Positions 16,736 through 29,354 of a stretch of DNA of 64,000 nt are shown one piece after another (positions within the stretch are counted from its first letter, which is position 1; the number at the start of each line of letters is the position of its first letter). Under the pieces are notes generated by a model. The model was not told the DNA's origin. It was given only the letters and a program-made list of their open reading frames with translations, and made no database searches. The position numbers and the translations under genes are program-made. Origin of the DNA: Gemmatimonadales bacterium (lineage in GTDB: Bacteria; Gemmatimonadota; Gemmatimonadetes; Gemmatimonadales; GWC2-71-9); NCBI GenBank assembly GCA_050732995.1, contig JBOHSA010000095.1, positions 1,471 through 65,470 on the forward strand, in the 5' to 3' direction.

Positions 16736-18115
16736 ATGGTACCACGATCGATGCGCCACGTGCCGATCCGCTTCGCCTGTCTGATCCCGCTCGCTGTCGG
16801 GTGCCGAGCCGCAGGCCCACCCTCCGCGCGGGTGGGGGAACCGGTCCCGGAGACCGCCCCCGCCATTGCGTGCCTGCCCCTTGCAGCCCGCCCGCTCACC
16901 ACTCGTCGCGCCGCGGGGAGAATGGATTCCGTCACCGTCACGCTCGCCGAACCGGTCGATCCGTCCCGCGCACCGGTTCCGAGCAGCGCCAGCGAGGCAC
17001 TGGTGTTCCGCCACCTGTACGAAGGACTGGCCCGCGTCGATTGCGAAGGCCGGGTCCTGACGGCCCTCGCCGAGTCTTGGCAGGCGGACGATGAAGGGCG
17101 GCGTTGGACTTTCATCTTGCGCCCCGGCGCGAGCTTTTGGGACGGCTCTCCGGTCCGGGCCGAGGACGTCGTCGCGGCGTGGAGTGCCCGGTCCTCGGCT
17201 GCCGGGCCCCTCCAGTTCCAGGTGGTGGTGACCGACGCGCGCACGCTCGTCGTCACGTTCGCGCGGCCGGACGCGGCGGCGCCGCGCCGGTTCGGCGACC
17301 CCGCTCTCGCCGTGACGAAACCCGCGTCCGAGGCGGCATGGCCCCTCGGCACCGGGCCCTATCAGATCGTGTCCGCCGGCGAATCGATCACCGCGGCCCC
17401 CGTCCCGGGGGTTCACGGGCCGCTGCTCGTCCTCCGGTCCGCGTCGGCGGCGGACCCCCGGGATCTGCTCGACGCCGGTACGGACGCGCTCCTGACCGAC
17501 GACCCGGCGGTGCTGGATTACGCGGCTCCGCGACCGGCGCTGGTCTCACTCCCGTTGCCGTGGAGCGGCACCTACGCGCTCGTCACGTCGCGCGAGACCG
17601 CGCTCGCGGCGGCGGAGTCCCGCGACGCGCTCGCGCGGGACGCGGTGCGCGGTGAGGCCCGGGGAGCGCAGCCGCCGTTCTGGTGGACCGAGGATGGCCT
17701 GCGATCCTGTTCGGCGGGTCCCGCCACCGCCGTCTCGGACGCCGCGGCCGGGGCCAGCCGCATCGTGTATCCCCGCGGCGACCGGTTGGCGCGCGACCTG
17801 GCTGGCCGCCTCGTGGCGCTCGCGGCCGCCGGCCGGCTGTGGCGGTCCCCCCCTCCCGCCACGCCTCGCGTCGCGGCGGTGGGCCTCGCGACCCGCGAGT
17901 TCGACGAGGCGCTCGCGCGCGGGGACGAGCTGGGCTACGTCCTGGCCTTGCCGCGCCAGGTCTACGATCCCTGCCGAGAGATCCGGGCGCGCGGGCTCGA
18001 CCCGCGTCGCGCCGCCGCGCTCGTGCCGCTCGTCGACACGCGCCGGCGCCTGCTCGTGCGCCGGAGTCGCTTCGGGGTATCAGTCGATTGGGACGGGATT
18101 CCGCGAATCCAGTGA
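16736..18115 (+). CDS. ABC-transporter family-5 (peptide/nickel type) substrate-binding-like lipoprotein
   Basis: LVFRHLYEGLARVDCEGRVLTALAESWQADDEGRRWTFILRPGASFWDGSPVRAEDVVAAW is the typical SBP_bac_5 N-lobe. The likely lipobox LAVGC favours a start at ATG 16751. No permease or ATPase genes follow; a sensor kinase gene does. Confidence 0.7.
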   Translation: MVPRSMRHVPIRFACLIPLAVGCRAAGPPSARVGEPVPETAPAIACLPLAARPLTTRRAAGRMDSVTVTLAEPVDPSRAPVPSSASEALVFRHLYEGLARVDCEGRVLTALAESWQADDEGRRWTFILRPGASFWDGSPVRAEDVVAAWSARSSAAGPLQFQVVVTDARTLVVTFARPDAAAPRRFGDPALAVTKPASEAAWPLGTGPYQIVSAGESITAAPVPGVHGPLLVLRSASAADPRDLLDAGTDALLTDDPAVLDYAAPRPALVSLPLPWSGTYALVTSRETALAAAESRDALARDAVRGEARGAQPPFWWTEDGLRSCSAGPATAVSDAAAGASRIVYPRGDRLARDLAGRLVALAAAGRLWRSPPPATPRVAAVGLATREFDEALARGDELGYVLALPRQVYDPCREIRARGLDPRRAAALVPLVDTRRRLLVRRSRFGVSVDWDGIPRIQ

Positions 18116-18149
18116 CCCCGCACACCTGACACCCGGTACCTCTAGACCG

Positions 18150-19847
18150 ATGACGTTCCGCTCTCGTCTCCTGGCCACCTTCGGAGCGCTCGCGCTCGTC
18201 CCGCTCGCGGTGCTGGGGGTCGGCATCCGGCGCGAAACGCGGGCCCGGCTCACCCTGCAGTACGAAGCGCGAGTCGGTGCGCTCGTCGCCATCATCCGCG
18301 CGGACCTGGCGCAGGCCAATGCCGCAATCGCCGCGGCGCTCGCTGGGGTGCGGGACGGGCTCGCCGAGGACAATCGGTTCCGTCTGGCGGTGAGCGACGG
18401 CGGCGACCGCGTGTATCTGCTGGACTACGCCGGGCGTGCCATGCGCCTCGCTGGGCTGTCGATGCTGCAGCTCCAGGACGAAGACGGGCGCATCGTCAGC
18501 TCCGGTCACTTCCGTAACGAATTCGACCGGATGGAGCCGGGGCTCCCGCGCGGGCTCGCGGCCGCCGGCCCGGGCCTCGCCCTGGTCGAGGCCCGGACGC
18601 CGGAGGCGTCGTTCTTCGTGCTGGCCCGCGCGGATTCCCTGCGGCTCGGGGGCCGGCGCCTCACGCTCGTCGGCGGCCGGGTGGTCGATCACCGCTTCCT
18701 CGCGCGGCTCGCGCGCGACCGCGACCTCGAAGTGACGCTCGAATACCCCGGCGGCGTCATCACCTCTACGCCGCCGGATTCCCTCGCCTCGGGCGGGGAT
18801 GCCGTGGCGGCGGAGCTGCCGATCCCCTTCATCACCGATCCGCCCGCACTCCCACCCCCCGCAGCCCGGTTCGTAGTGGCCGCCTCGCTCGCGCCGCTCG
18901 CGGCGCTCGAGCGCAGCCTCGACGCCTGGGTGCTGAGCGCCCTTGCCGCCAGCGCCGTCGCCGCCCTGCTGGGCGCGGGGTGGCTGTCCGCCCGCGTCAG
19001 CCGACCTCTGACCGCGCTCGCCGAGCGGACGGCCCAGGTCGACCTGGATCGGCTGGACGTGGAATTTCCCACGGACCGACGGGACGAGATCGGCGCCCTG
19101 GCGCGGCTGCTCGGCGCGATGACCGAGCGGTTGCGCGCCGGCGCCACCAGGCTGCGCGAGGCCGAGCGCCGGGCCACGGTCGGAGAAGTGGCCCGCCAGG
19201 TGAACCACGACATCAAGAACGGCTTGATTCCGATCCGCAACGTGCTGCGCCACTTGGCGGAGGTCGCCCGGGACCGGCCGACGGCCCTGCCGGGGGTGTT
19301 CGAAGAGCGGCGCGGCACGCTCGAGTCGGGAATCAGCTACCTCGAGACCTTGGCCGCGAACTACGCCCGGCTTTCGCCCAAGCTGGACGGCGGCGCCTGT
19401 CAGGCGAATGCGGTGGTGGCCGAGGTCCTGCGCGACGCCCCACGGCGCGATGGTCTGGAATTCGTGACCCGCCTGGCCGAGGGCCTCCCGCCCGTGCAGG
19501 GCGACGCCGTGGTGCTGCGGCGCATTCTCGAGAACCTGGTCGGCAACGCGGTGGACAGCCTCGGTCCGGACGGCGGCGCTGGCATGGTGACGCTGGCGAC
19601 GGAGGCCGCGGGCTCGACCATCCGGCTCACCGTCGCCGACACGGGGCCGGGAATGACCCGGGCGGAGCTCGACCGGGCGTTCGAAGATTTCTATACGACC
19701 AAGCCGGGCGGCACCGGCCTCGGGCTGTCCATCGTGCGCCGCCTGGTGGTCGATCTGAGCGGATCCCTCCGGGTCGAGACGGCGCCCGGGCAGGGGACGA
19801 CCTTTGTCATCGAACTACCCGCGGCGAACCAGGGCAGCGCGGCATGA
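18150..19847 (+). CDS. NtrY-like sensor histidine kinase (TM-HAMP-HisKA-HATPase)
   Basis: ORF 17652..19847 trimmed to ATG 18150 (MTFRSRLLATFGALALVPLAVLGVGI). HAMP (DEIGALARLLGAMTERL), H-box ARQVNHDIKNGLIPI, and ATPase motifs DTGPGM and GTGLGLSIV. Confidence 0.82.
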   Translation: MTFRSRLLATFGALALVPLAVLGVGIRRETRARLTLQYEARVGALVAIIRADLAQANAAIAAALAGVRDGLAEDNRFRLAVSDGGDRVYLLDYAGRAMRLAGLSMLQLQDEDGRIVSSGHFRNEFDRMEPGLPRGLAAAGPGLALVEARTPEASFFVLARADSLRLGGRRLTLVGGRVVDHRFLARLARDRDLEVTLEYPGGVITSTPPDSLASGGDAVAAELPIPFITDPPALPPPAARFVVAASLAPLAALERSLDAWVLSALAASAVAALLGAGWLSARVSRPLTALAERTAQVDLDRLDVEFPTDRRDEIGALARLLGAMTERLRAGATRLREAERRATVGEVARQVNHDIKNGLIPIRNVLRHLAEVARDRPTALPGVFEERRGTLESGISYLETLAANYARLSPKLDGGACQANAVVAEVLRDAPRRDGLEFVTRLAEGLPPVQGDAVVLRRILENLVGNAVDSLGPDGGAGMVTLATEAAGSTIRLTVADTGPGMTRAELDRAFEDFYTTKPGGTGLGLSIVRRLVVDLSGSLRVETAPGQGTTFVIELPAANQGSAA

Positions 19848-21244
19848 CGCTCGTGCTGGTGGTAGACGACGTCCCGGCGTTGGCCGAGCAATACGCCTAC
19901 GACCTCCGGCGACTGGGGGGCGGGCCGGGGGGACCCGGGTTCGAGACGCTGGTGGCCGGCGGGGGCCGGGAAGCGCTCGAAACGCTCGCGCGCGAGGCCG
20001 TCGACTGCGTGATCCTCGACCTCGAGATGCCGGGGGTGGACGGCTTCGAGGTGCTGCGCACGATCCGGCAGCGCGGGCTCGACGTCCCGGTGATCGTGTA
20101 CACCGGCACGGGCAGTTACGACCGGTGTGTCCAGGCGGTCCGCCAGGGCGCCGACGGGTTCATCGACAAAGCGGAACCGATGGAGCGCGTGCTTCGGGAG
20201 ATCGAGGTCGCGCTCGAGCGGCGCCGGCTCACTTCCGAAGTGCGGGCGCTCCGCTCGCGACTCGGCGTGGACACTTCGCTCGTCGGGGAGAGCGAGCCGA
20301 TGCGGCGGCTGCGGGAAGCGATCGCGCGCGTGGCTTCCGTACCCAGCCCCGTCCTGATTGAAGGGGAGACCGGTACGGGCAAGGAGCTGGTCGCACGCGA
20401 TCTCCACCGGTTGGGGGGAGGGGGGGGGGCGGCACGTGAGCGCGAGCCGTTCATCGCTCTGAACTGCGCAGCGCTGCCGGAGAACCTGGTCGAGAGCGAG
20501 CTGTTCGGGCACGAGCGCGGCGCGTTCACCGGCGCCGCACAGCTGCGCCAGGGCGCCTTCGAAGCCGCGGGTCGGGGCACCCTGTTCCTCGACGAGATCG
20601 GCGAGCTGCCGGGGCCGGCGCAGGCGAAGCTGCTCCGCGTCCTCGAGACCAATGAGGTCACGCGGGTCGGCGGCACGCGGATCGTCGCCGTCCGCGCGCG
20701 CGTCCTTGCGGCGACCAACCGCCGCCTCGAGGCGGAGGTCGCCGCGGGACGGTTTCGCCAGGACCTGTTCTTCCGGCTGAACGTGCACGTCCTGCGGGTC
20801 CCCCCGCTCCGGGAGCGGCTGTCCGACGTTCCCGCGCTCGCCGAGCACTTGCTCGCGGCGCTGTGCCGGCGGCTGGGCGTCCGTCCGCGGCGCCTCGCCC
20901 CCGACGCGATCGAGCTATTGATGGGCTACGATTGGCCCAAGAACAACGTCCGCGAGCTGCGCAACATGCTCGAGCGGATGATCATCGCCTCGGATGTCGA
21001 GACCTTGACCGCGGCGGACGTGCCGCCGGAAGTCCGGGACAGCGGGCCCCCTCCCCCGCCCGGCGGCCCCGGCGTGGGCGCTCGGACCTTTCTCGAGCAA
21101 AAGGCCGAAGCCGAGCGCCGGATCCTCGTCGCCGCGCTCGAGCGCAACGACTGGCACATCAGCCGCACGGCCCGCGAGCTGGGTCTCGCCGACCACTCGA
21201 GCCTGCTCAAGATCATGCGGAGGCACGGCATCGGTCGCGATTGA
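19844..21244 (+). CDS. sigma-54-dependent response regulator (NtrC-family bacterial enhancer-binding protein)
   Basis: ATGA overlap with the kinase stop. REC domain (VLVVDDV...CVILDLEMPGVDG), AAA+ domain (GETGTGKELVA, ESELFGHERGAFTGA = GAFTGA motif), and a C-terminal Fis-type HTH (ISRTARELGLADHSSLLKIMRRHGI). Confidence 0.92.
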   Translation: MTLVLVVDDVPALAEQYAYDLRRLGGGPGGPGFETLVAGGGREALETLAREAVDCVILDLEMPGVDGFEVLRTIRQRGLDVPVIVYTGTGSYDRCVQAVRQGADGFIDKAEPMERVLREIEVALERRRLTSEVRALRSRLGVDTSLVGESEPMRRLREAIARVASVPSPVLIEGETGTGKELVARDLHRLGGGGGAAREREPFIALNCAALPENLVESELFGHERGAFTGAAQLRQGAFEAAGRGTLFLDEIGELPGPAQAKLLRVLETNEVTRVGGTRIVAVRARVLAATNRRLEAEVAAGRFRQDLFFRLNVHVLRVPPLRERLSDVPALAEHLLAALCRRLGVRPRRLAPDAIELLMGYDWPKNNVRELRNMLERMIIASDVETLTAADVPPEVRDSGPPPPPGGPGVGARTFLEQKAEAERRILVAALERNDWHISRTARELGLADHSSLLKIMRRHGIGRD

Positions 21245-21253
21245 AAACCATCC

Positions 21254-21304
21254 GTGTCCCGCCGGACACATTAGGTATCTCCTCTATGTGTCCGGATGAA
21301 CACA
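21254..21304 (+). promoter_or_regulatory. two copies of an inverted repeat GTGTCC-N4-GRACAC (candidate enhancer-binding-protein UAS)
   Basis: GTGTCCCGCCGGACAC at 21254-21269 and TGTGTCCGGATGAACACA at 21287-21304. Their centres are about 34 bp apart and lie about 100-145 bp upstream of the predicted -24/-12 promoter. Confidence 0.45.
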
Positions 21305-21400
21305 ACCAGTGTGGCCGGCAGTCCTCTCAGACCTAGGCATCAGAGGATAACCAATTGAGCCGGAGTGGCTTACGACTAGTGGCCAGCCGGCGCATTCCGC

Positions 21401-21416
21401 TGGTATTCCCCCTGCT
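21401..21416 (+). promoter_or_regulatory. candidate sigma-54 (-24/-12) promoter
   Basis: TGGTATTCCCCCTGCT has GG and GC at the consensus spacing of TGGCAC-N5-TTGCW. It lies 36 nt upstream of the ATG at 21452 and directly downstream of the bEBP gene. Confidence 0.5.
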
Positions 21417-21451
21417 TTCTCTGCGTGTGCCCACACATCAGAGGAGGCAGT

Positions 21452-22468
21452 ATGCGTCGGGAATTCACCTTGGCTCCGGCGGGGGAGCCCAAGCCATGGC
21501 AGCTCGGGGCCGTAGTTGCCGTGCTGACTGCCGTCACGTTCGTCGCCGCCTACGCGACGGGCTGCGGAGATTCGGGGCACGCGGAGCGCGACATCGGGGT
21601 GGACAGCGGGGAGGTGGCGGTGACGTCGTCGCCGACGCCGCCCACAACGTTGGCCGAAGCGGTGACTCGTGCCGCGATCTCCGGCCCGGTCGCGTTTGCA
21701 GACGCCGAAGCCGCGTACCGTGACAAACGCTACGGCGAAGCGACGGCCCTGTTCACGGCCTACAGCGAGCGCCGGCCGGAGAACCCGTGGGGTCATTACA
21801 TGCTCGGCCTCTCCGCGTGGAAGGCCGGACACGCGGATCGCGCCGTGCCCGCGTTCGAGCGGGTGCTCGAGCGCGACTCCACCCACGTGAAAGCCCTGCT
21901 CAATCTGAGCCGGGTGCTGTTGGAGATCGGACGGTCGGAGGATGCGATCCAGCGCATCGAGCGCGTGGTGGGATCCGACTCGACGCTCGGCGAGGCGTGG
22001 CGGGTGCTGGGCCGGGCTCGCGCCGAGCTGGACCAGGTGGACGGCGCCATCGAGGCCTACCAGCGGGCGCTCGCCCTCGACGACGGTGATGCATGGAGTA
22101 TGAACAATCTCGGACTGCTGCACGTCCGGGAGGGTCGATTCGAGGAGGCGTTGCCGCCCCTGGCGCGTGTCGTCGAGCTGCGGCCCGACGTCGCCGCCTT
22201 CCAGAACAACCTCGGCATCGCTCTGGAGCGGGCAGGGCAATACGGCGCGGCCGGGACCGCTTACCGCGCCGCCCTCGCGGCCGATAGCGCGCACGCCAAG
22301 GCGTCCGTCAGCCTAGCGCGGGTGGAAGGGAAGCTGGACTCCGTCGGCGTCGTGCCGGTGGACCTGGCCGCTCTGGCGCGGGGGTTCGTCGCGGAAACCG
22401 CCCGGTGGCGGGAGGAGTTCGGGGTCGGCGCTGCGGAGACGCCGTCCAAGCCTGAGCCGGCGCGCTGA
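21452..22468 (+). CDS. TPR-repeat lipoprotein/secreted protein
   Basis: ORF 21425..22468; ATG 21452 is preceded by AGGAGG. It has an N-terminal hydrophobic segment with Cys (AAYATGCG) and repeated 34-aa TPR-like units (AYRDKRYGEATALFTAY, WRVLGRARAELDQVDGAIEAYQRALALD, NNLGIALERAGQYGAAGTAYRAALAAD). Confidence 0.8.
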   Translation: MRREFTLAPAGEPKPWQLGAVVAVLTAVTFVAAYATGCGDSGHAERDIGVDSGEVAVTSSPTPPTTLAEAVTRAAISGPVAFADAEAAYRDKRYGEATALFTAYSERRPENPWGHYMLGLSAWKAGHADRAVPAFERVLERDSTHVKALLNLSRVLLEIGRSEDAIQRIERVVGSDSTLGEAWRVLGRARAELDQVDGAIEAYQRALALDDGDAWSMNNLGLLHVREGRFEEALPPLARVVELRPDVAAFQNNLGIALERAGQYGAAGTAYRAALAADSAHAKASVSLARVEGKLDSVGVVPVDLAALARGFVAETARWREEFGVGAAETPSKPEPAR

Positions 22469-22494
22469 GGAGCAGAAACCTGGCTGGTGGAGGG

Positions 22495-22524
22495 ACGAGG
22501 CCCGCGGTGCGGGCCTCGTTTTTT
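22495..22524 (+). terminator. rho-independent terminator
   Basis: Perfect 11-bp stem ACGAGGCCCGC / GCGGGCCTCGT with a 3-nt loop, followed by TTTTTT. It lies 27 nt after the TPR gene stop. Confidence 0.85.
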
Positions 22525-22572
22525 CGGTGCGGGTCTTCCTCCCCCGGGCTGCCGCACGCGATCATCATCTCC

Positions 22573-23280
22573 TCAGGACTTCCGGAACACGACGAAGAGG
22601 ATCCGGCCCAACAGTAGCGCCGTCGAGTTGTGCAGGCGATAGGGGAGCCCGGCCAGCCGAGTGTAGGCGTACACCAGCGGGACCAGCCACAACAGCCAGC
22701 GGGACGTCGTCTGGTAGCGGTCCGCCGCCACGGTCTCCACGACGAGGCCGGCGCGGTGGGCCAGATAGCCCAGCTGGTCCAGGGTGAGTGCCGCGACGTG
22801 CTGCAGGCCGTCCGTGTTCTCCGGGTCGAGCGGCTTGAAGCTGTAGAAAAACCCCGACAGCAGGAACCGCACGCGCGACTTGAGCGACAGGACGTTCGGC
22901 GTCGAGATCACGAGCCGGCCGCCGGGCTTCAGGACGCGGTGGCACTCCCGGACGAACGTCAGATGGTCCACCAGATGCTCCATGACCTCGATCGCCACCA
23001 CGACATCGAACGAGGCGTCCGCGTACGGCAGGCGCTGCGTGAGGTCGGCCTGGCGGACCTCCACCGGCGCGTAGCGGAACCGCTCCGGAAACAGGTCGCA
23101 CGCTGCGACCTCGAACCCCTGCTCGTGCAGCCGCTGCGCCAGCGCGCCGTGGCCGGTCCCGGCGTCGAGGATCCGCAGCGTGTCGCGACGCGCGTCCGCC
23201 CCACCGACCAGCTGCGTGAAGAACGCGAGGAACCGCTCGTGCACGCCGGGCATCGTGATCGGTCGAATGTCCGAGCTCAC
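22573..23280 (-). CDS. class I SAM-dependent methyltransferase with hydrophobic C-terminal tail
   Basis: Motif I ILDAGTGHGALAQRL, then DVVVAIEVMEHL and LKPGGRLVIS. The listed 383-aa ORF is over-extended. The start is GTG 23280 (GTGA overlap with the upstream stop) or ATG 23253. Confidence 0.8.
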   Translation of the reverse strand: MSSDIRPITMPGVHERFLAFFTQLVGGADARRDTLRILDAGTGHGALAQRLHEQGFEVAACDLFPERFRYAPVEVRQADLTQRLPYADASFDVVVAIEVMEHLVDHLTFVRECHRVLKPGGRLVISTPNVLSLKSRVRFLLSGFFYSFKPLDPENTDGLQHVAALTLDQLGYLAHRAGLVVETVAADRYQTTSRWLLWLVPLVYAYTRLAGLPYRLHNSTALLLGRILFVVFRKS

Positions 23281-23846
23281 TGCCCACCCTTCCGGGGCCG
23301 GGTGACGAACGTCCCGAGGTAGATGTAGTCGCCGAGCGGGGACGCGTCGTCGTCGGCGGCGTTGGCCGCCACATGAAACACCACGGGCGCCGCGCCGGAG
23401 GGCGCGGTCCACTCCAGCGTCCAGCGCGCCGTATCGGGCGCCGTGAGGTCCGTCCCAGCGAGCGTGTGGTGCACGTAGTCCACGGCGCGGACCGAGTCGC
23501 GTGTCAGCGCGACCCGCGGGTTGCCGGGGGTGAAGCGGCCCGCCTGGCGCCCTATCTCGTCTCCCGCGGCCCACCGGGCCGAGGCTTCGAAGCCGGCGGC
23601 CCGCATCCCCGGCCGGACGAGCGTGATGATCAAGCGGTAACGCTGTCCCGCGACCGACGACTCGGGAACGCCGTCGATCGAGAGGGTGCCGAGGCGCTCG
23701 TTGAGGGGCGCGCCCGAGTGACACTGCGCGCAGCTCGGCTCGCCGAATCCGCCCGTGTGCGCCGGTGGGGGACGCTCCGGAAAACGGGGCGCCGCCGCGA
23801 CCGCGGCGGCGCCGAGCACCGCGAGCCCGAAGCCGAACGGTCTCAG
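23277..23846 (-). CDS. secreted hypothetical protein with a single CXXCH haem-binding motif
   Basis: C-terminal 189 codons of ORF 23277..24839: (L)RPFGFGLAVLGAAAVAAAP...HTGGFGEPSCAQCHSG... followed by a beta-rich region ending VFHVAANAADDDASPLGDYIYLG. There is no ATG or GTG near the signal peptide. The candidate starts are CTG 23846 (CTGA overlap with the upstream stop) and GTG 23819. Confidence 0.5.
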   Translation of the reverse strand: MRPFGFGLAVLGAAAVAAAPRFPERPPPAHTGGFGEPSCAQCHSGAPLNERLGTLSIDGVPESSVAGQRYRLIITLVRPGMRAAGFEASARWAAGDEIGRQAGRFTPGNPRVALTRDSVRAVDYVHHTLAGTDLTAPDTARWTLEWTAPSGAAPVVFHVAANAADDDASPLGDYIYLGTFVTRPRKGGQ

Positions 23847-24832
23847 GGCAACCGCGCCCGACCGATCGTGCCGACGTCGGTGCCGAACCAGATCTCGCGC
23901 GTCGGCCGGTGGTACACCATGTGCCGCACCGTCCCGCCGCCGCTCTTGATGTCGGTGATGCTCCAAAACTCTCCCGTCGTCGGGCCGAAGCCGACGAGCC
24001 GATTGGGTTGCCGGCCGGTCTCGACCAGCCAGATCCGGTCGCGCTCGTCCACCGTCATCGCGTAGGGGCGCGACCCCGCCCCGCCGGGCATCGGCCACTC
24101 CTTGAATGCACCCGTCGCGGGATCGTAGCGGCCCAGCTGGCCGGCGGCGTAGTCCCCATACCAGATCTTGTCGTCCGAGGTGATGCCGATCCGCCGCGGC
24201 CGGGTTGCCTCCCGCGGCAGCGGTATCTCCCGCAGCGCCAGCGAGGCAGGGTCGACCGTGGCCAGCTTGTTCGTGCCGAACAGCACGATCCATGGCCGGT
24301 CTTTCGAGTCGATCCAGATACCATAAGGGCGGGCGTTCGGCGTCGGCACCGGCACGAGGCGCACGACCCCCGACGCGACGGTCAGCTTCCCGATCCGGTT
24401 GGCGCCCTGCAGGGTGAACCAGATGTCGCCGTGACTGTCGAACACCAGCGTATGCGGGTCGCGGGCGGCGGGATCGGGCATCGGGTACTTGGTGATCCCG
24501 CCCGTCTTGGGATCGAGCTTCCCGATGTGCGCGGCCCGGTTCCCCGCGTACCACACGAAGCCGTTCCGGTCCACGATGAGGTTGTGCGGCCCGGCGCCCG
24601 AGTCGAGCGGGAACCGCTTGAACTCCCCGGTCTTGGGCTCGAGGTAGGCGACGTAATCGGCGGTTTGCCCGACGAACCAGACCCGGCCCTGACCGTCCAC
24701 GTACGGGTCGCGGGGGCGCGAGTTCGGCCAGGGGACCGGCCATTCCCGGATGTCGACGGGGTTCGTGTCCGGCCCGGGGGTCACGCTGGCCCCGAGCAGG
24801 GGCAGGAGCAGCAGGGTGAGGCGCGGTTTCAC
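23843..24832 (-). CDS. Vgb (virginiamycin B lyase)-like beta-propeller protein, secreted
   Basis: ORF 23843..25054 trimmed to GTG 24832 (VKPRLTLLLLPLLGASV signal). It has repeated approx 40-aa blades with (P/A)xGI(W/T)xDxxGxIW(F/Y) patterns: PHNLIVDRNGFVWYAG, PHTLVFDSHGDIWFTL, PYGIWIDSKDRPWIVL, PRRIGITSDDKIWYGD, PYAMTVDERDRIWLVE. Confidence 0.75.
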   Translation of the reverse strand: MKPRLTLLLLPLLGASVTPGPDTNPVDIREWPVPWPNSRPRDPYVDGQGRVWFVGQTADYVAYLEPKTGEFKRFPLDSGAGPHNLIVDRNGFVWYAGNRAAHIGKLDPKTGGITKYPMPDPAARDPHTLVFDSHGDIWFTLQGANRIGKLTVASGVVRLVPVPTPNARPYGIWIDSKDRPWIVLFGTNKLATVDPASLALREIPLPREATRPRRIGITSDDKIWYGDYAAGQLGRYDPATGAFKEWPMPGGAGSRPYAMTVDERDRIWLVETGRQPNRLVGFGPTTGEFWSITDIKSGGGTVRHMVYHRPTREIWFGTDVGTIGRARLP

Positions 24833-24959
24833 GGAGCACTCCCGGAAGGTCTCGTGGAAGTGTACGCGCCGCCGCGCGCGTTCGTTAGAGCCCCGGGTGT
24901 CCTTGTGGCGGGCCGGACCCGGCGTTCTCTTTTCCGGAGCCACGTCACAAGGAGATCGC

Positions 24960-27032
24960 GTGCGTTGCGCCGTCCTGCTGTCGCTGGCCGTCCTGGCCGC
25001 CCCCTCGGGCCTTCGCGCCCAGGAAACCCCGTCCGACACGCTGCTCACCGTCAACCATTACCTGGACTGGGAGACCGTCGCCGAGCCTCGGCTCTCCCCC
25101 GACGGATCGCAGGTCATCTACACCCGCCGCTGGGTGAACAAGCTCGAGGATCGCTGGGAATCGGCGTTGTGGATCATGCACGCCGACGGGACCAAGAACC
25201 GCTTCCTGGTCAAGGGCTCGAACGCGCGCTGGTCACCCGACGGGACGCGGATCCTGTACCTGGGCGACGGCGAGCCCAAGGGGTCGCAAGTGTTCGTGCG
25301 CTGGATGGACGCCGAGGGCGCGACCTCCCAGGTGACGCGCGTGCTCGAGGCGCCGGGCAGCCCGGAATGGTCGCCCGACGGCCGGTGGGTCGCGTTCGCG
25401 ATGCTGGTGCGCGATGCCGAGGCCTGGAAGATCAGCATGCCGGCCGCGCCTGAAGGCGCCAAGTGGACCCCCGCGCCGCGCGTCGTGGACCGCCTGCACT
25501 ACCGCCAAGACCGGTCGGGGTTCATGCAGGACGGCTACACGCACCTGTTCGTCGTCGCGGCGGACGGCGGCACCCCGCGGGCGCTCACCAGCGGGCCGTG
25601 GAACGTGGGCGCGCGGTTCGATATGCTCGTCGGCACCGTGGGCTTCGACTGGACGCCGGACGGCCGGACGATCGTGTTCGACGGCTACCGCGACCCGGAC
25701 GCCGACTGGAACCACCGGGATTCCCATTTGTACGTGGTGGACGTCGCGAGCGGCGCGATCCGACAGCTCACCGTCCGCCGCGGCTCATGGACCGACCCGG
25801 TGATCTCGCCCGACGGTCGCTCCGTCGCGTTCACCGGCTTCGACTCCACCGCCAAGTCGTACAAGACCGACGAGGTCTTCGTCATCGGGATCGATGGGTC
25901 GGGCATGCGGCAGATCTCGGGGAACTTCGATCGCGATCCGGCGAACCTGCACTGGGCGCCGGACGGGAGCGGGCTGTACTTCACGGCGGCGGACCGGGGG
26001 ACGAGCAACGTCCTCTTCGCTGGCAGTCGGGGCGGGGGCGGCGTGCGGAAGGTGACCGAGGGCACGCACATGCTCTCGCTGACCGCGATCGACCGCACCC
26101 TGAACGCCGTCGGCATCCGCGCCGATCCCGACGAGCCGGGCGACGTGGTGCGCTACAACCTGCGCCGGCCGCAGCCCATCACCCGCCTCACCGCCGTCAA
26201 CGACGACGTCCTGGCGAACAAGCGGCTGGGCCCGGTAGAGGAGGTCTGGTACACGTCGACGAGTGGCACCCGAGTGCAAGGCTGGATCGTCAAACCGCCG
26301 GGCTTCGACGCCGCCAAGAAGTACCCGCTGATCATGGAGATCCACGGCGGGCCGCACGGGATGTACAACGTCGCCTTCAGCTACATGTATCAGAACTTCG
26401 CCGCCAACGGGTTCGTGGTGCTGTACACCAACCCGCGCGGGTCCACGGGCTATGGGACGACGTTCGGCAACGCGATCGAGCGCGCCTACCCCGGCGTGGA
26501 TTACGACGATCTGATGGCCGGTGTGGACACGGTGCTGGGGCGCGGCTACATCGATCCCAAGCGGCTGTACGTGGGCGGCTGCAGTGGGGGTGGGGTGCTG
26601 TCGAGCTGGGTCATCGGCCACACCACCCGCTTCGCGGGGGCGGCCGTGCGCTGCCCGGTGATCAACTGGATCAGTATGGCGGGCCAGACCGATATCCCGC
26701 TCTTCACCTACTTCTGGTTCGACGCGCCGTTCTGGGAGAAGCCGGAGCAGTGGCTCAAGCAGTCATCCCTGATGTATGTGGGGAATGTGACGACGCCGAC
26801 CCTGGTCATGACCGGCGAGCTCGATCTCCGGACACCCATGCCGCAGAGCGAGGAGTACTTCGCGGCCCTGAAGATGCGGAAGGTCCCGACCGTGCTCCTG
26901 CGGTTCAACGGCGAGTACCACGGCACGGGCTCGCGGCCATCGAACTTTATCCGCACCCAGCTCTACATGATGAGCTGGTACAAGAAGTACGGCGGCGGCG
27001 GAGAGACCGCCGCGAGCGGCGAGCAGAAATAG
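24960..27032 (+). CDS. S9-family serine peptidase (prolyl oligopeptidase/acylaminoacyl peptidase type) with N-terminal PD40 beta-propeller
   Basis: ORF 24750..27032 trimmed to GTG 24960, preceded by AAGGAG (VRCAVLLSLAVLAAPSGLRAQ signal). PD40-like repeats (RLSPDGSQVIY, RWSPDGTRILY, EWSPDGRWVAF, VISPDGRSVAF), nucleophile elbow YVGGCSGGG, and later GELDLRTP and GEYHG. Confidence 0.88.
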   Translation: MRCAVLLSLAVLAAPSGLRAQETPSDTLLTVNHYLDWETVAEPRLSPDGSQVIYTRRWVNKLEDRWESALWIMHADGTKNRFLVKGSNARWSPDGTRILYLGDGEPKGSQVFVRWMDAEGATSQVTRVLEAPGSPEWSPDGRWVAFAMLVRDAEAWKISMPAAPEGAKWTPAPRVVDRLHYRQDRSGFMQDGYTHLFVVAADGGTPRALTSGPWNVGARFDMLVGTVGFDWTPDGRTIVFDGYRDPDADWNHRDSHLYVVDVASGAIRQLTVRRGSWTDPVISPDGRSVAFTGFDSTAKSYKTDEVFVIGIDGSGMRQISGNFDRDPANLHWAPDGSGLYFTAADRGTSNVLFAGSRGGGGVRKVTEGTHMLSLTAIDRTLNAVGIRADPDEPGDVVRYNLRRPQPITRLTAVNDDVLANKRLGPVEEVWYTSTSGTRVQGWIVKPPGFDAAKKYPLIMEIHGGPHGMYNVAFSYMYQNFAANGFVVLYTNPRGSTGYGTTFGNAIERAYPGVDYDDLMAGVDTVLGRGYIDPKRLYVGGCSGGGVLSSWVIGHTTRFAGAAVRCPVINWISMAGQTDIPLFTYFWFDAPFWEKPEQWLKQSSLMYVGNVTTPTLVMTGELDLRTPMPQSEEYFAALKMRKVPTVLLRFNGEYHGTGSRPSNFIRTQLYMMSWYKKYGGGGETAASGEQK

Positions 27033-27045
27033 ACGGCGCGACGCC

Positions 27046-27870
27046 TCAGAACGGGTGCTCGAAGCTGAGGTAGAGGAACAGGGCATCCTCGCCCCGGCTC
27101 TGCCCCACGCCGATCGGGAACGCGATCCCCGGCACGATCTGGAGCCCGCTCGGGAAATTGTGCGCCCAGCGGACGCCGGGGTTCACGAACAAGGCCTCGG
27201 CGCGCGCCGTCGCGCCGGGACCCGTCACCGTTTCGCCCCGGGACCATACGACCTCGACCAGCACGTTGAACGTCGAGCGCGCCAACCAGATGACGCTGGC
27301 GCCGAGATTGTACTCGGTCGTGGTCGCTTCGTCGCCCAGCGGGCTGTTCGCGTCCGGCGTGAGCGTCGCGCCGGCGTTCCAGTGCGTCACGACGCGGGGC
27401 GCCAGCGTGACGCTGACCGGCAGGTTGACCTGGAGCCCCGCGGCGCCCGTGCCCAGCCCCTTCGCCTCGTCTCCCGTCGGCAGGAGGACGGAGAGACGCG
27501 GGGCGACCGAGACGCGCGTCTCGGTGCCGGCGAGCTGATACCGGTAGTTGACCGCTATGTCGCGCAAGCCGGTCCGACCGGCCCGCTCGACCGGCACCGT
27601 GAAGCTCAACTGGCTCGTCTGCCCGAACAGCGGCCACTCCTGCGTGAAGGCGTAGACCCATGTGCCAGCGCCGCGCGGGCGGAGAAACGCGCTGATGTGC
27701 TGCACGACGCCTGGCTCCTGATTGTACGCCTCCTCCAACAGGAAGCTGTTGTCCGCGATTGCCGGCGCGTCTTTGCGCTCCTGGCCGGCGGCCACCCCTA
27801 TGCCCCCGCCTGCGCCGAACGCCAGGGCGGCCACCAAGGCGCCGCACGGCCACCGACCGCGCCGCGTCAC
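27046..27870 (-). CDS. outer-membrane beta-barrel transporter-like protein (MetA-pathway/phenol-degradation-like family)
   Basis: Signal peptide, alternating beta-strand pattern, a conserved-looking N-terminal ADNSFLLEEAYNQEPGVVQHI, and a terminal aromatic residue (...YLSFEHPF). Confidence 0.65.
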   Translation of the reverse strand: MTRRGRWPCGALVAALAFGAGGGIGVAAGQERKDAPAIADNSFLLEEAYNQEPGVVQHISAFLRPRGAGTWVYAFTQEWPLFGQTSQLSFTVPVERAGRTGLRDIAVNYRYQLAGTETRVSVAPRLSVLLPTGDEAKGLGTGAAGLQVNLPVSVTLAPRVVTHWNAGATLTPDANSPLGDEATTTEYNLGASVIWLARSTFNVLVEVVWSRGETVTGPGATARAEALFVNPGVRWAHNFPSGLQIVPGIAFPIGVGQSRGEDALFLYLSFEHPF

Positions 27871-29354
27871 TGGCGGCCCGCGCGCTCGACATCCCCCCAG
27901 CCGGCGACGCCCCCATGTCCACCCGCCACCCGCTCGAGGGCGATCCCGCGCGCGCGCGCGAAGGCGAGGAGCTCGGCGCTGCCGATCGGCGCCAGCGTGG
28001 GTCCGGGGGTCAGCACGTCGCTCGTGAACAGGAGCCGCGCGCTCGGCACGTAGGCCGCGAGCATCCCCTCGACGTGCGTGGTCGGGAGGCGGTAGATCAC
28101 CACCCGGCTCTCACCCTGGCCGAGTACGAGGCTGTCGTCCACGGTCTGGATGACCGGTGGCGTCGGCCGCCGCGACAAGGCGTCGGGGGCGATGGTCTTG
28201 CGCGCCGTGGCGATCTCCCGGATCAACGCAGCGTTGCGACGGTGCGTGACCACGGGGATGCCCGCGGCGAGATAGCCCCGCACGCCACCGGCGTGATCCC
28301 AATGGTGGTGCGTATTGACCAGCAGCCGGACGGGTTTCGCCGGGAAGCGGACACGCAGGGTGTCGAGCACGGCCTGGGACCGGGCCGCGCTCTGGGGCCC
28401 TTCCACCACGACGAGGCGAGTCGGCTGCTCGACGACGAGGGAATGGTGCGACCCCCCCTCGGCGCGCCACACGCCGGGCGCGAGCTCGACCAGGGTCACC
28501 GTGATTGGGGGCGGCGTCGGGTTGCTGCGCTGCGCCCGGCGGGTGATCGAGTCGGGAATGACGAACAGGGAATCGGGCAGGTCGGGGTTGACGGTCACCG
28601 CCGTGAACACCGAGTGGTTCTGCAGGCGGCCGTTGACCGCGACGTCGTACTGGCGGGGATATTTGAGGCCGCCGCCCGCGCCGCCCGCGCCGCCCGCGCC
28701 GCCCGTCGCCTGCCAGCGCGTGTACCACCGCGCGGTCCGCCGGTCGCCCAGGATCGGGTCGTCGGTGACGGTTTCCGCCACGGTCAAGAGCCCCGAAGCG
28801 CGATCGAAGTACAGATCCAGCGTGTCCGGTCCGCTCGCGTACCGCACGCCGTCATGCGGCTCGCCCCGCCAGGGCTTGGGGGGCAGGGGCCGCAGCGCGC
28901 CCGGGTGATCGAGCCCCGCGAGGAGCAGCCGCTCCGGTGCCTGCCGCATCCCGGTTTCCACGCCGGCCACGGTGGCCGGGTTGTCGGGCGCCTGACGGCC
29001 GTTGGTCTCCAGCATGCCGATCCCGCCCGCGGTCACGCGCCGCAGCCGGTTCACCACCCCTGCGACCACCCGCAGCTCGGTGCTTCCGGTCTGGCGGGCG
29101 CCGCGGTAGTCGGTGGCAGTGCGGCCGACGACCAGGTTGGCGCGCGCGGCGGAGGCGGGCGTTTCCTCCTGGCCGATGGCGAACGTGGCGCCATAGAACT
29201 CGGTCGTGATCCCCGTCAGGCCGCGCAGCGCCTGCTCCCCACCCATCGCCGCGACGGCGCGCGCGACGATGTCTCGAGGCGCAGCGCCCTGAGCACTCGC
29301 ACCGGGCGGTCCGATCACGATGAGTGCCCACACCAATCCGAAGCGGTTCGACAT
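27867..29354 (-). CDS. secreted MBL-fold metallo-hydrolase
   Basis: Signal peptide MSNRFGLVWALIVIGPPGASAQ. LLVNTHHHWDHAGGVRGY (HxHxDH) in the C-terminal half. 4-nt overlap with the downstream OM gene. It contains a (GGA)n insert encoded by a 9-bp tandem repeat. Confidence 0.82.
   Translation of the reverse strand: MSNRFGLVWALIVIGPPGASAQGAAPRDIVARAVAAMGGEQALRGLTGITTEFYGATFAIGQEETPASAARANLVVGRTATDYRGARQTGSTELRVVAGVVNRLRRVTAGGIGMLETNGRQAPDNPATVAGVETGMRQAPERLLLAGLDHPGALRPLPPKPWRGEPHDGVRYASGPDTLDLYFDRASGLLTVAETVTDDPILGDRRTARWYTRWQATGGAGGAGGAGGGLKYPRQYDVAVNGRLQNHSVFTAVTVNPDLPDSLFVIPDSITRRAQRSNPTPPPITVTLVELAPGVWRAEGGSHHSLVVEQPTRLVVVEGPQSAARSQAVLDTLRVRFPAKPVRLLVNTHHHWDHAGGVRGYLAAGIPVVTHRRNAALIREIATARKTIAPDALSRRPTPPVIQTVDDSLVLGQGESRVVIYRLPTTHVEGMLAAYVPSARLLFTSDVLTPGPTLAPIGSAELLAFARARGIALERVAGGHGGVAGWGDVERAGRQ
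28671..28706. repeat. perfect 9-bp tandem repeat CGCCGCCCG x4 inside the MBL gene
   Basis: Read directly. On the coding (minus) strand it encodes the GGAGGAGGAGGG segment. Confidence 0.9.

Follow-up and report, generated by a model that had tools for sequence, protein, structure and literature searches.

Three overlapping genes and a conserved pair

A stretch of 64,000 nucleotides (nt) from a Gemmatimonadales genome (GenBank assembly GCA_050732995.1, contig JBOHSA010000095.1, positions 1,471 to 65,470; hereafter the window), with a G+C content of about 71%, carries three co-directional genes on its minus strand, here called A, B and C, and the first two are the main subject of this work. Gene A (23843-24832, minus strand) encodes a secreted protein of 329 amino acids (aa) predicted to adopt the beta-propeller fold of Vgb, and it starts at GTG 24832 with GGGAG ahead of the start. 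Gene B (23277-23846, minus strand) encodes a probably secreted 'choice-of-anchor V' protein, which has 189 aa when read from CTG 23846 and 180 aa when read from GTG 23819. Gene C (22573-23280, minus strand) encodes a class I S-adenosylmethionine (SAM)-dependent methyltransferase of 235 aa without a signal peptide. A first-pass annotation, made from the sequence of this locus, had described the three genes as joined by two 4-nt overlaps, and both are found where it placed them. CTGA at 23843-23846 (minus strand) combines the TGA stop of A with a CTG in the frame of B, a putative non-canonical start that would couple the translation of the two genes. GTGA at 23277-23280 (minus strand), read in the sequence, combines the TGA stop of B with the GTG start of C, and the same 4-nt overlap is called in a relative that is 79-90% identical (locus L001). 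Against this relative, A and C both have a dN/dS of 0.13 and B has one of 0.21, showing that all three genes are under purifying selection. They are probably co-transcribed in the window.

The start of B was considered separately because CTG is a non-canonical start codon. A database protein 99% identical to B (P0001; 180 aa, named a 'choice-of-anchor V' protein by NCBI) has the length expected for a start at GTG 23819. A protein initiated there has only about 10 residues of signal peptide in front of the conserved PRFPERPPPAHTGG, which is too short a signal, and the orthologues of B have at least 27 residues ahead of their TGGF motif; a full signal peptide for B of the window needs the CTG start. 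An in-frame GTG, ATG or TTG of B that overlaps the stop of A by 4 nt (GTGA, ATGA, TTGA) or by 1 nt was found in 25 of the 51 co-directional loci analysed, and its position is that of the CTGA in the window. L001 also has CTGA, and the next 27 nt differ there by two third-position changes and by two replacements of one hydrophobic residue by another in the frame of B. From these comparisons the overlap of A and B is credible, and the translation of B probably begins at CTG, coupled to the termination of A.

The conservation of the pair was analyzed by scanning one genome per species, which gave 297 relatives of B; 80 loci were retained from these and searched for A by tblastn. A adjoins B in 77 of the 80 loci. 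Two of the misses (L063 and L079) have B at a contig edge, so the proportion among informative loci is 77 of 78. The pair spans Gemmatimonadota, Longimicrobiales, Rhodothermales, KSB1, Thermoanaerobaculia and Acidobacteriota. The two genes are co-directional, A and then B, in 60 loci (Gemmatimonadota, Longimicrobiales, Rhodothermales, KSB1 and Thermoanaerobaculia) and divergent in 17, mainly from Acidobacteriota with a few others. A further sampled orthologue of A has B at a 4-nt overlap (L093), and the pair is present in the complete genome of a cultured bacterium, Roseithermus sacchariphilus MEBiC09517 (L068). The pairwise identities of A are correlated with those of B (r = 0.76), and A is the more conserved protein, its orthologues being 63-74% identical across phyla compared with 45-60% for B. 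All-against-all clustering of the flanking open reading frames (ORFs) in 81 loci gave no third conserved gene, with shadow ORFs in high-GC DNA adding noise to the clusters; the runner-up cluster, with 15 loci, has the look of synteny within a clade. Across phyla, A and B form a module of two genes that is almost invariant. Their families have already been catalogued, as names only, and we found no paper that describes the pair.

The absence of a canonical start at the junction and the abutting reading frames would also fit a single gene that had been split by a frameshift or an assembly error. The first-pass annotation had raised this point and suggested a search for fused proteins; we found no fusion of A and B among 120 listed relatives of B, the 150 best representatives of the B family and 120 listed homologues of A. 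The homologues of B stand alone, with 160-280 aa and signal peptides of their own, and the 120 listed homologues of A have 312-379 aa. The two genes lie in different frames in most loci, and a split gene does not account for the 17 divergent loci. We consider this explanation ruled out, and A and B are two genes.

Some side observations concern individual loci of the pair. The metagenome-assembled genome (MAG) DATKCV (Gemmatimonadaceae) has two copies of B, on contigs L055 and L079. A di-haem oxidoreductase gene (DHOR, PF06537) is divergent from A in L004/L005 (2623-3807), unseen in the other loci with gene tables read, and a Sortilin/BNR gene lies just downstream of B in the same two loci.

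A Vgb-fold propeller and its CXXCH partner

Protein A begins with the signal-like segment MKPRLTLLLLPLLGASV. It matches the Pfam family PF24684 (Vgb_lyase) with 164.9 bits (threshold 50, E 2e-48) and, more weakly, the gluconolactonase-like SGL family of Pfam, and its nearest solved structures are the Vgb lyases. The AlphaFold2 (AF2) model of A has a mean confidence (pLDDT) of 92.5 and 28 strands, and Foldseek aligned it with the Vgb structures 2qc5 and 2z2o at TM-scores of 0.83 and 0.91, respectively, with a root-mean-square deviation of 2.0 Å and 24-27% identity. According to this model, A is a seven-bladed beta-propeller of the Vgb fold. The first-pass description of A as Vgb-like and secreted holds. 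A shares with Vgb (Staphylococcus aureus 2Z2N/2Z2O/2Z2P, S. cohnii 2QC5) the seven-bladed fold, the PF24684 family and a repeated blade motif.

The active site differs. The original structure paper on Vgb reportedly gives His228, Glu268, His270 and Glu284 as its catalytic or Mg2+-binding residues, and we checked this numbering on the 2z2n alignment. In the best-scoring register, which places blade n+1 of A on blade n of Vgb, H228, E268, H270 and E284 correspond to H304, R39, R41 and T57 of A. In the topological register they correspond to Y257, T301, R303 and D319. On these alignments the catalytic His/Glu set of Vgb is replaced in A in both registers tried. In Vgb, a substrate analogue and the catalytic Mg2+ are bound at blades 6 and 7 (PMC8916777). 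A has a conserved set of its own, consisting of R41, H83, H127, Y170, R213, Y257 and H304, one in each blade, located where its first strand begins or just ahead of it. Since the first strand is the innermost strand of each blade in propellers generally, these Arg/His/Tyr residues are predicted to ring the mouth of the central channel. Further conserved residues are D42, D125, R214, E271, R303 and M305, and Met305 and the His residues are invariant. The number of conserved arginines points to an anionic ligand, either a substrate or haem propionates. No Pfam family for pyrroloquinoline quinone (PQQ) binding matched A; the only PQQ-type signature was a non-significant match to TIGR03606 (E 0.026, 13.3 bits vs 434).

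The matches to Vgb_lyase and SGL, the closeness of the Vgb structures and the names 'virginiamycin B lyase' or 'lyase', given to proteins like A by the database sources, would fit A being a true hydrolase or lyase of the Vgb/lactonase type, acting on a cyclic depsipeptide, a lactone or a similar compound, with B merely co-transcribed. One orthologue of A occurring without B (L092, described below) is consistent with this. Besides the replaced catalytic set, the scores of A against the NCBIfam models of Vgb(A) and Vgb(B), 105.2 and 87.3 bits, are far below the cut-off of 600, and A is an exported protein, Vgb a cytoplasmic one. It is also hard to explain without a functional link that A adjoins B in 77 of the 78 informative loci and that the stop codon of one gene often overlaps the start codon of the other. 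We regard such a lyase as quite improbable. Given that A is exported, is paired with a CXXCH protein and lacks the catalytic residues of the lyase, it is probably wrong to count A-like genes as streptogramin resistance in soil resistome surveys.

Three orthologues of A have irregular reading frames. In a MAG with 47% G+C and about 1.5x coverage (L016:3978-4943), an in-frame TAA takes the place of the Tyr codon of the other orthologues, which probably reflects a sequencing error or a pseudogene. The gene is in two tblastn pieces in L053 and L006, which suggests frameshifts or decay.

Protein B contains the segment GGFGEPSCAQCHSG with its CXXCH motif and ends with VFHVAANAADDDASPLGDYIY. The first-pass annotation had described one such motif after a signal-like segment, followed by a beta-rich domain with this ending, and all of these elements are present. 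The codons of the motif (C39 A Q C42 H43), read in the sequence at 23718-23732 (minus strand), encode a predicted site of covalent haem c attachment. The same annotation could not assign B to a characterised family. This stands in part: no Pfam family matched B of the window above threshold, and we found neither a functional study nor a cofactor or partner in the literature for B or for 'choice-of-anchor V'. B does pass the NCBIfam model NF041895 ('choice-of-anchor V') with 75.7 bits against a cut-off of 42 over residues 28-179, which provides a name without a function. The name of this model catalogues a domain, and B of the window has no C-terminal anchor after the domain.

The predicted fold of B appears to be related to the Reeler domain. 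The family profile of B matched the reeler domains of F-spondin with E 2e-4, and Reeler (PF02014) is the commonest weak Pfam match among the relatives of B (15 of 114, best E 2.2e-4). The AF2 model (pLDDT 90.7) shows an N-terminal arm followed by a nine-strand sandwich, with a helical turn at the CXXCH motif (residues 39-41), and the reeler domains 2zot and 3coo were among the best Foldseek matches (TM-score 0.46-0.62). The likeness to Reeler domains (F-spondin 2ZOT/2ZOU/3COO; PF02014) is limited to the beta-sandwich of B. Reeler domains lack the CXXCH arm.

The motif is conserved across the family. Of 268 members, 266 have exactly one CXXCH, the conservation of C39, C42 and H43 reaches 100% in the alignment, and T31, G32, G33, F34 and E36 belong with them to a set of positions conserved at 96-100%, with TGGFGE lying directly ahead of CXXCH. 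Signal peptides are present throughout the family. A conserved single CXXCH, export and a helical turn at the motif are together the signature of covalent haem c attachment. Following this usual signature, B is probably an exported protein that carries one covalent haem c on its CXXCH.

It is also conceivable that B is not a cytochrome and that CXXCH, together with E36, H127 and D173, forms a site for Cu, Zn or Fe or a redox-active disulphide, in which case B would serve as a chaperone, a metal donor or a substrate-binding accessory. Among the Foldseek matches of B are YcnI, which binds copper, and other Ig-like sandwiches without haem, and Reeler domains are not known to bind haem c. B has no invariant distal ligand (H127 is 87% conserved), and its conserved acidic loop N162...D167-S169-G172-D173 resembles a cation-binding loop. 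A metal site fits poorly with the complete conservation of the His directly after CXXC, with the motif occurring exactly once, and with the signal peptides of the family and the modelled helical turn at the motif. We therefore judge a metal or disulphide site unlikely, and covalent haem c is the reading that we retain.

The relatives of B have 160-280 aa, and the larger family comprises 7,297 cluster representatives at E <= 1e-3. Among the few longer proteins, those with a Pfam match carry BNR/Sortilin or peptidase M28, and the others have no Pfam match. P0253 is a fusion of B with peptidase M28 and P0244 a fusion of B with BNR/Sortilin.

A possible two-subunit periplasmic haemoprotein

We propose that A and B form a two-subunit periplasmic haemoprotein in which B is the dedicated haem partner of the propeller, a reading for which we see about equal grounds for acceptance and for doubt. 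Both proteins would be exported by their own signal peptides, with their translation coupled by the overlap of stop and start codons. A single haem c would be attached covalently to the invariant CXXCH on the arm of B, and the arm would pack against the Reeler-type beta-sandwich. A would be a propeller of the Vgb fold that lacks the Mg2+ site of the streptogramin lyase and has its channel mouth lined by the conserved Arg/His/Tyr ring, where it would bind a substrate that is probably anionic. B could then act as an electron shuttle to or from the respiratory chain, or it could place its haem at the channel mouth of the propeller.

The second of these roles can be extended further. No sixth haem ligand is fully conserved within B (H127 at 87%), compared with the invariant Met305 and His residues of A. 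B might be the first c-type cytochrome built on a Reeler-type sandwich, with the haem of its arm plugged into the channel mouth of A, the arginines holding the propionates, and Met305 or a His of the ring serving as the sixth ligand in a composite active site. We put this forward tentatively and think it more probably wrong than right.

Several points weigh against the proposal of a two-subunit haemoprotein. Haem binding in B is argued from the motif alone, and docking of B on the channel mouth of A is a conjecture. The parent enzyme Vgb is a non-redox lyase, so a redox role of A is without precedent in its own family. B of the window has no canonical start at the overlap. We found no experiment or paper on the pair. 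There are also exceptions to the pairing: in L070, a true exception, B occurs without A within its 5.8-kb contig, and in L092 (3001-3990) an orthologue of A that is 70% identical and has all the ring residues lies on a 2.1-Mb contig with no B within 3 kb. Because of these two loci the partnership of A and B is not absolute, and the propeller may work without an adjacent B in some genomes. As for their surroundings, the B gene of L070 (601-1200) shares 4 nt with the membrane-protein gene upstream of it, and a GAF-like gene and an M28-like peptidase gene lie downstream. The neighbours of the L092 orthologue encode an RsgA GTPase and a propeller of the PQQ_2 type.

Known systems offer partial parallels to a propeller with a haem partner. 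In cytochrome cd1, a haem is held in the central cavity of the propeller by Arg, His and Tyr side chains. Cytochrome cd1 nitrite reductase and the quinohaemoprotein dehydrogenases combine a periplasmic propeller with a mono-haem c module, as proposed for A and B. Their c domains are helical, their propellers are eight-bladed and they are unrelated in sequence, whereas A belongs to a Vgb/NHL-like lineage; the fold class of the cd1-type c domain is given in PMC6472588. The other parallel comes from enzymes that contain a beta-sandwich cytochrome as a domain. One of them is the fungal PQQ pyranose dehydrogenase, whose PQQ domain is a beta-propeller. In this enzyme and in cellobiose dehydrogenase (CDH), a dedicated single-haem cytochrome b domain with a beta-sandwich fold relays electrons for the catalytic module (PMC6472588). 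The haem b of these enzymes is non-covalent and their domains are fused, whereas B has a predicted c-type haem and is encoded by a separate gene. We take the enzymes with a built-in beta-sandwich cytochrome and the cd1-type propeller enzymes as the nearest working analogies to the A-B pair. Cytochrome f is a membrane-anchored subunit of b6f and gave no match to B in the profile or fold searches. Its CXXCH is close to the mature N-terminus. It is a c-type cytochrome on a beta-sandwich, and the beta-sandwich cytochromes in the same review are cytochrome f and the cytochrome b domain of CDH only (PMC6472588).

If B binds haem, the Reeler-like beta-sandwich would be added to the folds of c-type cytochromes, the 7,297 cluster representatives would define a large family of them, and the pair would provide a handle on periplasmic redox chemistry in the poorly studied Gemmatimonadota, Acidobacteriota and Rhodothermota. 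If the composite site of A and B also exists, the genomes of soil bacteria would contain, in their thousands, a haem enzyme of a new periplasmic class that is annotated there as 'virginiamycin B lyase'. The pair is small and self-contained, and its presence in cultured R. sacchariphilus makes the proposal directly testable. Within the window, no other CXXCH protein was found among the ORFs filtered by G+C content at third codon positions (GC3), a result that says little because the filter also missed B and C; this was our sole look toward cytochrome c maturation.

Gene C and the flanks of the locus

Protein C matches the Pfam families Methyltransf_11 and Methyltransf_23. The first-pass annotation had assigned it a hydrophobic membrane tail, for which the evidence is weak: the maximum Kyte-Doolittle mean over 19 residues is 1.14, below the expectation for a transmembrane helix. 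The tail itself is a conserved part of the family, as homologues align over 100% of the length of C. The same annotation had treated A, B and C as a unit, and its conservation as a neighbourhood does not extend to C, which adjoins the pair only in L001 and L002 among 88 loci. Homologues of C with 54-65% identity sit elsewhere. One lies in a glycosyltransferase cluster with S-adenosylhomocysteinase (L090) and another with WecG glycosyltransferase and S-adenosylhomocysteinase genes (L091). In the MAG DASXUE, the homologue of C (65% identical) is on contig L089 and the A-B pair on L021. C is a lineage-specific passenger outside the conserved A-B module. It is probably cytoplasmic and derived from another process, such as the methylation of envelope glycans or lipids.

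The GTGA overlap of B and C kept in L001 and the purifying selection on C would be expected if the three proteins formed a single pathway of three steps in which the methyltransferase acts on the substrate or product of the pair. Such a pathway does not agree with the absence of C from the other 86 loci, with the separate contigs of C and the pair in DASXUE, or with the placement of other C homologues in or near glycosyltransferase and S-adenosylhomocysteinase genes. C also lacks a signal peptide, whereas A and B are predicted to be exported. The neighbourhood data have already largely refuted this pathway, and we consider it very improbable. Under the proposal of a two-subunit haemoprotein, C would have newly joined the transcript in this lineage.

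The flanking regions were examined for regulatory signals. A divergent intergenic region of 127 nt (24833-24959) separates A from an S9 peptidase gene, which starts at GTG 24960 with GGAG ahead, and is the presumed promoter region of A, B and C. No match to the sigma-70 or sigma-54 consensus was found in this region upstream of A, and the sigma-54-like matches across the window (16) are close to the number expected by chance (about 17). At the other end, between C (end 22573) and a convergent tetratricopeptide repeat (TPR) gene (end 22468), a GC-rich hairpin, CGAGGCCCGC-GGT-GCGGGCCTCG, followed by T6, lies at 22496-22524 (plus strand) and is likely the terminator at the end of the transcript. 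The hairpin has a 10-bp stem and was not reported by a terminator pattern scan, although it apparently fits the stated rules of the scan. No Rfam family matched within 20000-28000.

Other neighbouring genes were noted along the way. The convergent TPR protein (21425-22468, plus strand) matches, below the threshold, the TPR domain of CcmH/CycH from cytochrome c biogenesis (37.6 vs 42 bits), and the TPR neighbour in L006 has the same weak match; both are probably generic cross-matching of TPR sequences. Past this gene, downstream of C, a HAMP histidine kinase and an NtrC-type sigma-54 activator are encoded at 17652-21244 (plus strand), syntenic in L001. A regulatory link of this kinase and regulator to the A-B pair is not established, there being no sigma-54-type promoter upstream of A. 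A gene of the metallo-beta-lactamase fold (27867-29354, minus strand) has a 4-nt overlap with a gene encoding 274 aa without a Pfam match (27046-27870). The counterparts of these two genes are also adjacent in L001, with their order kept.

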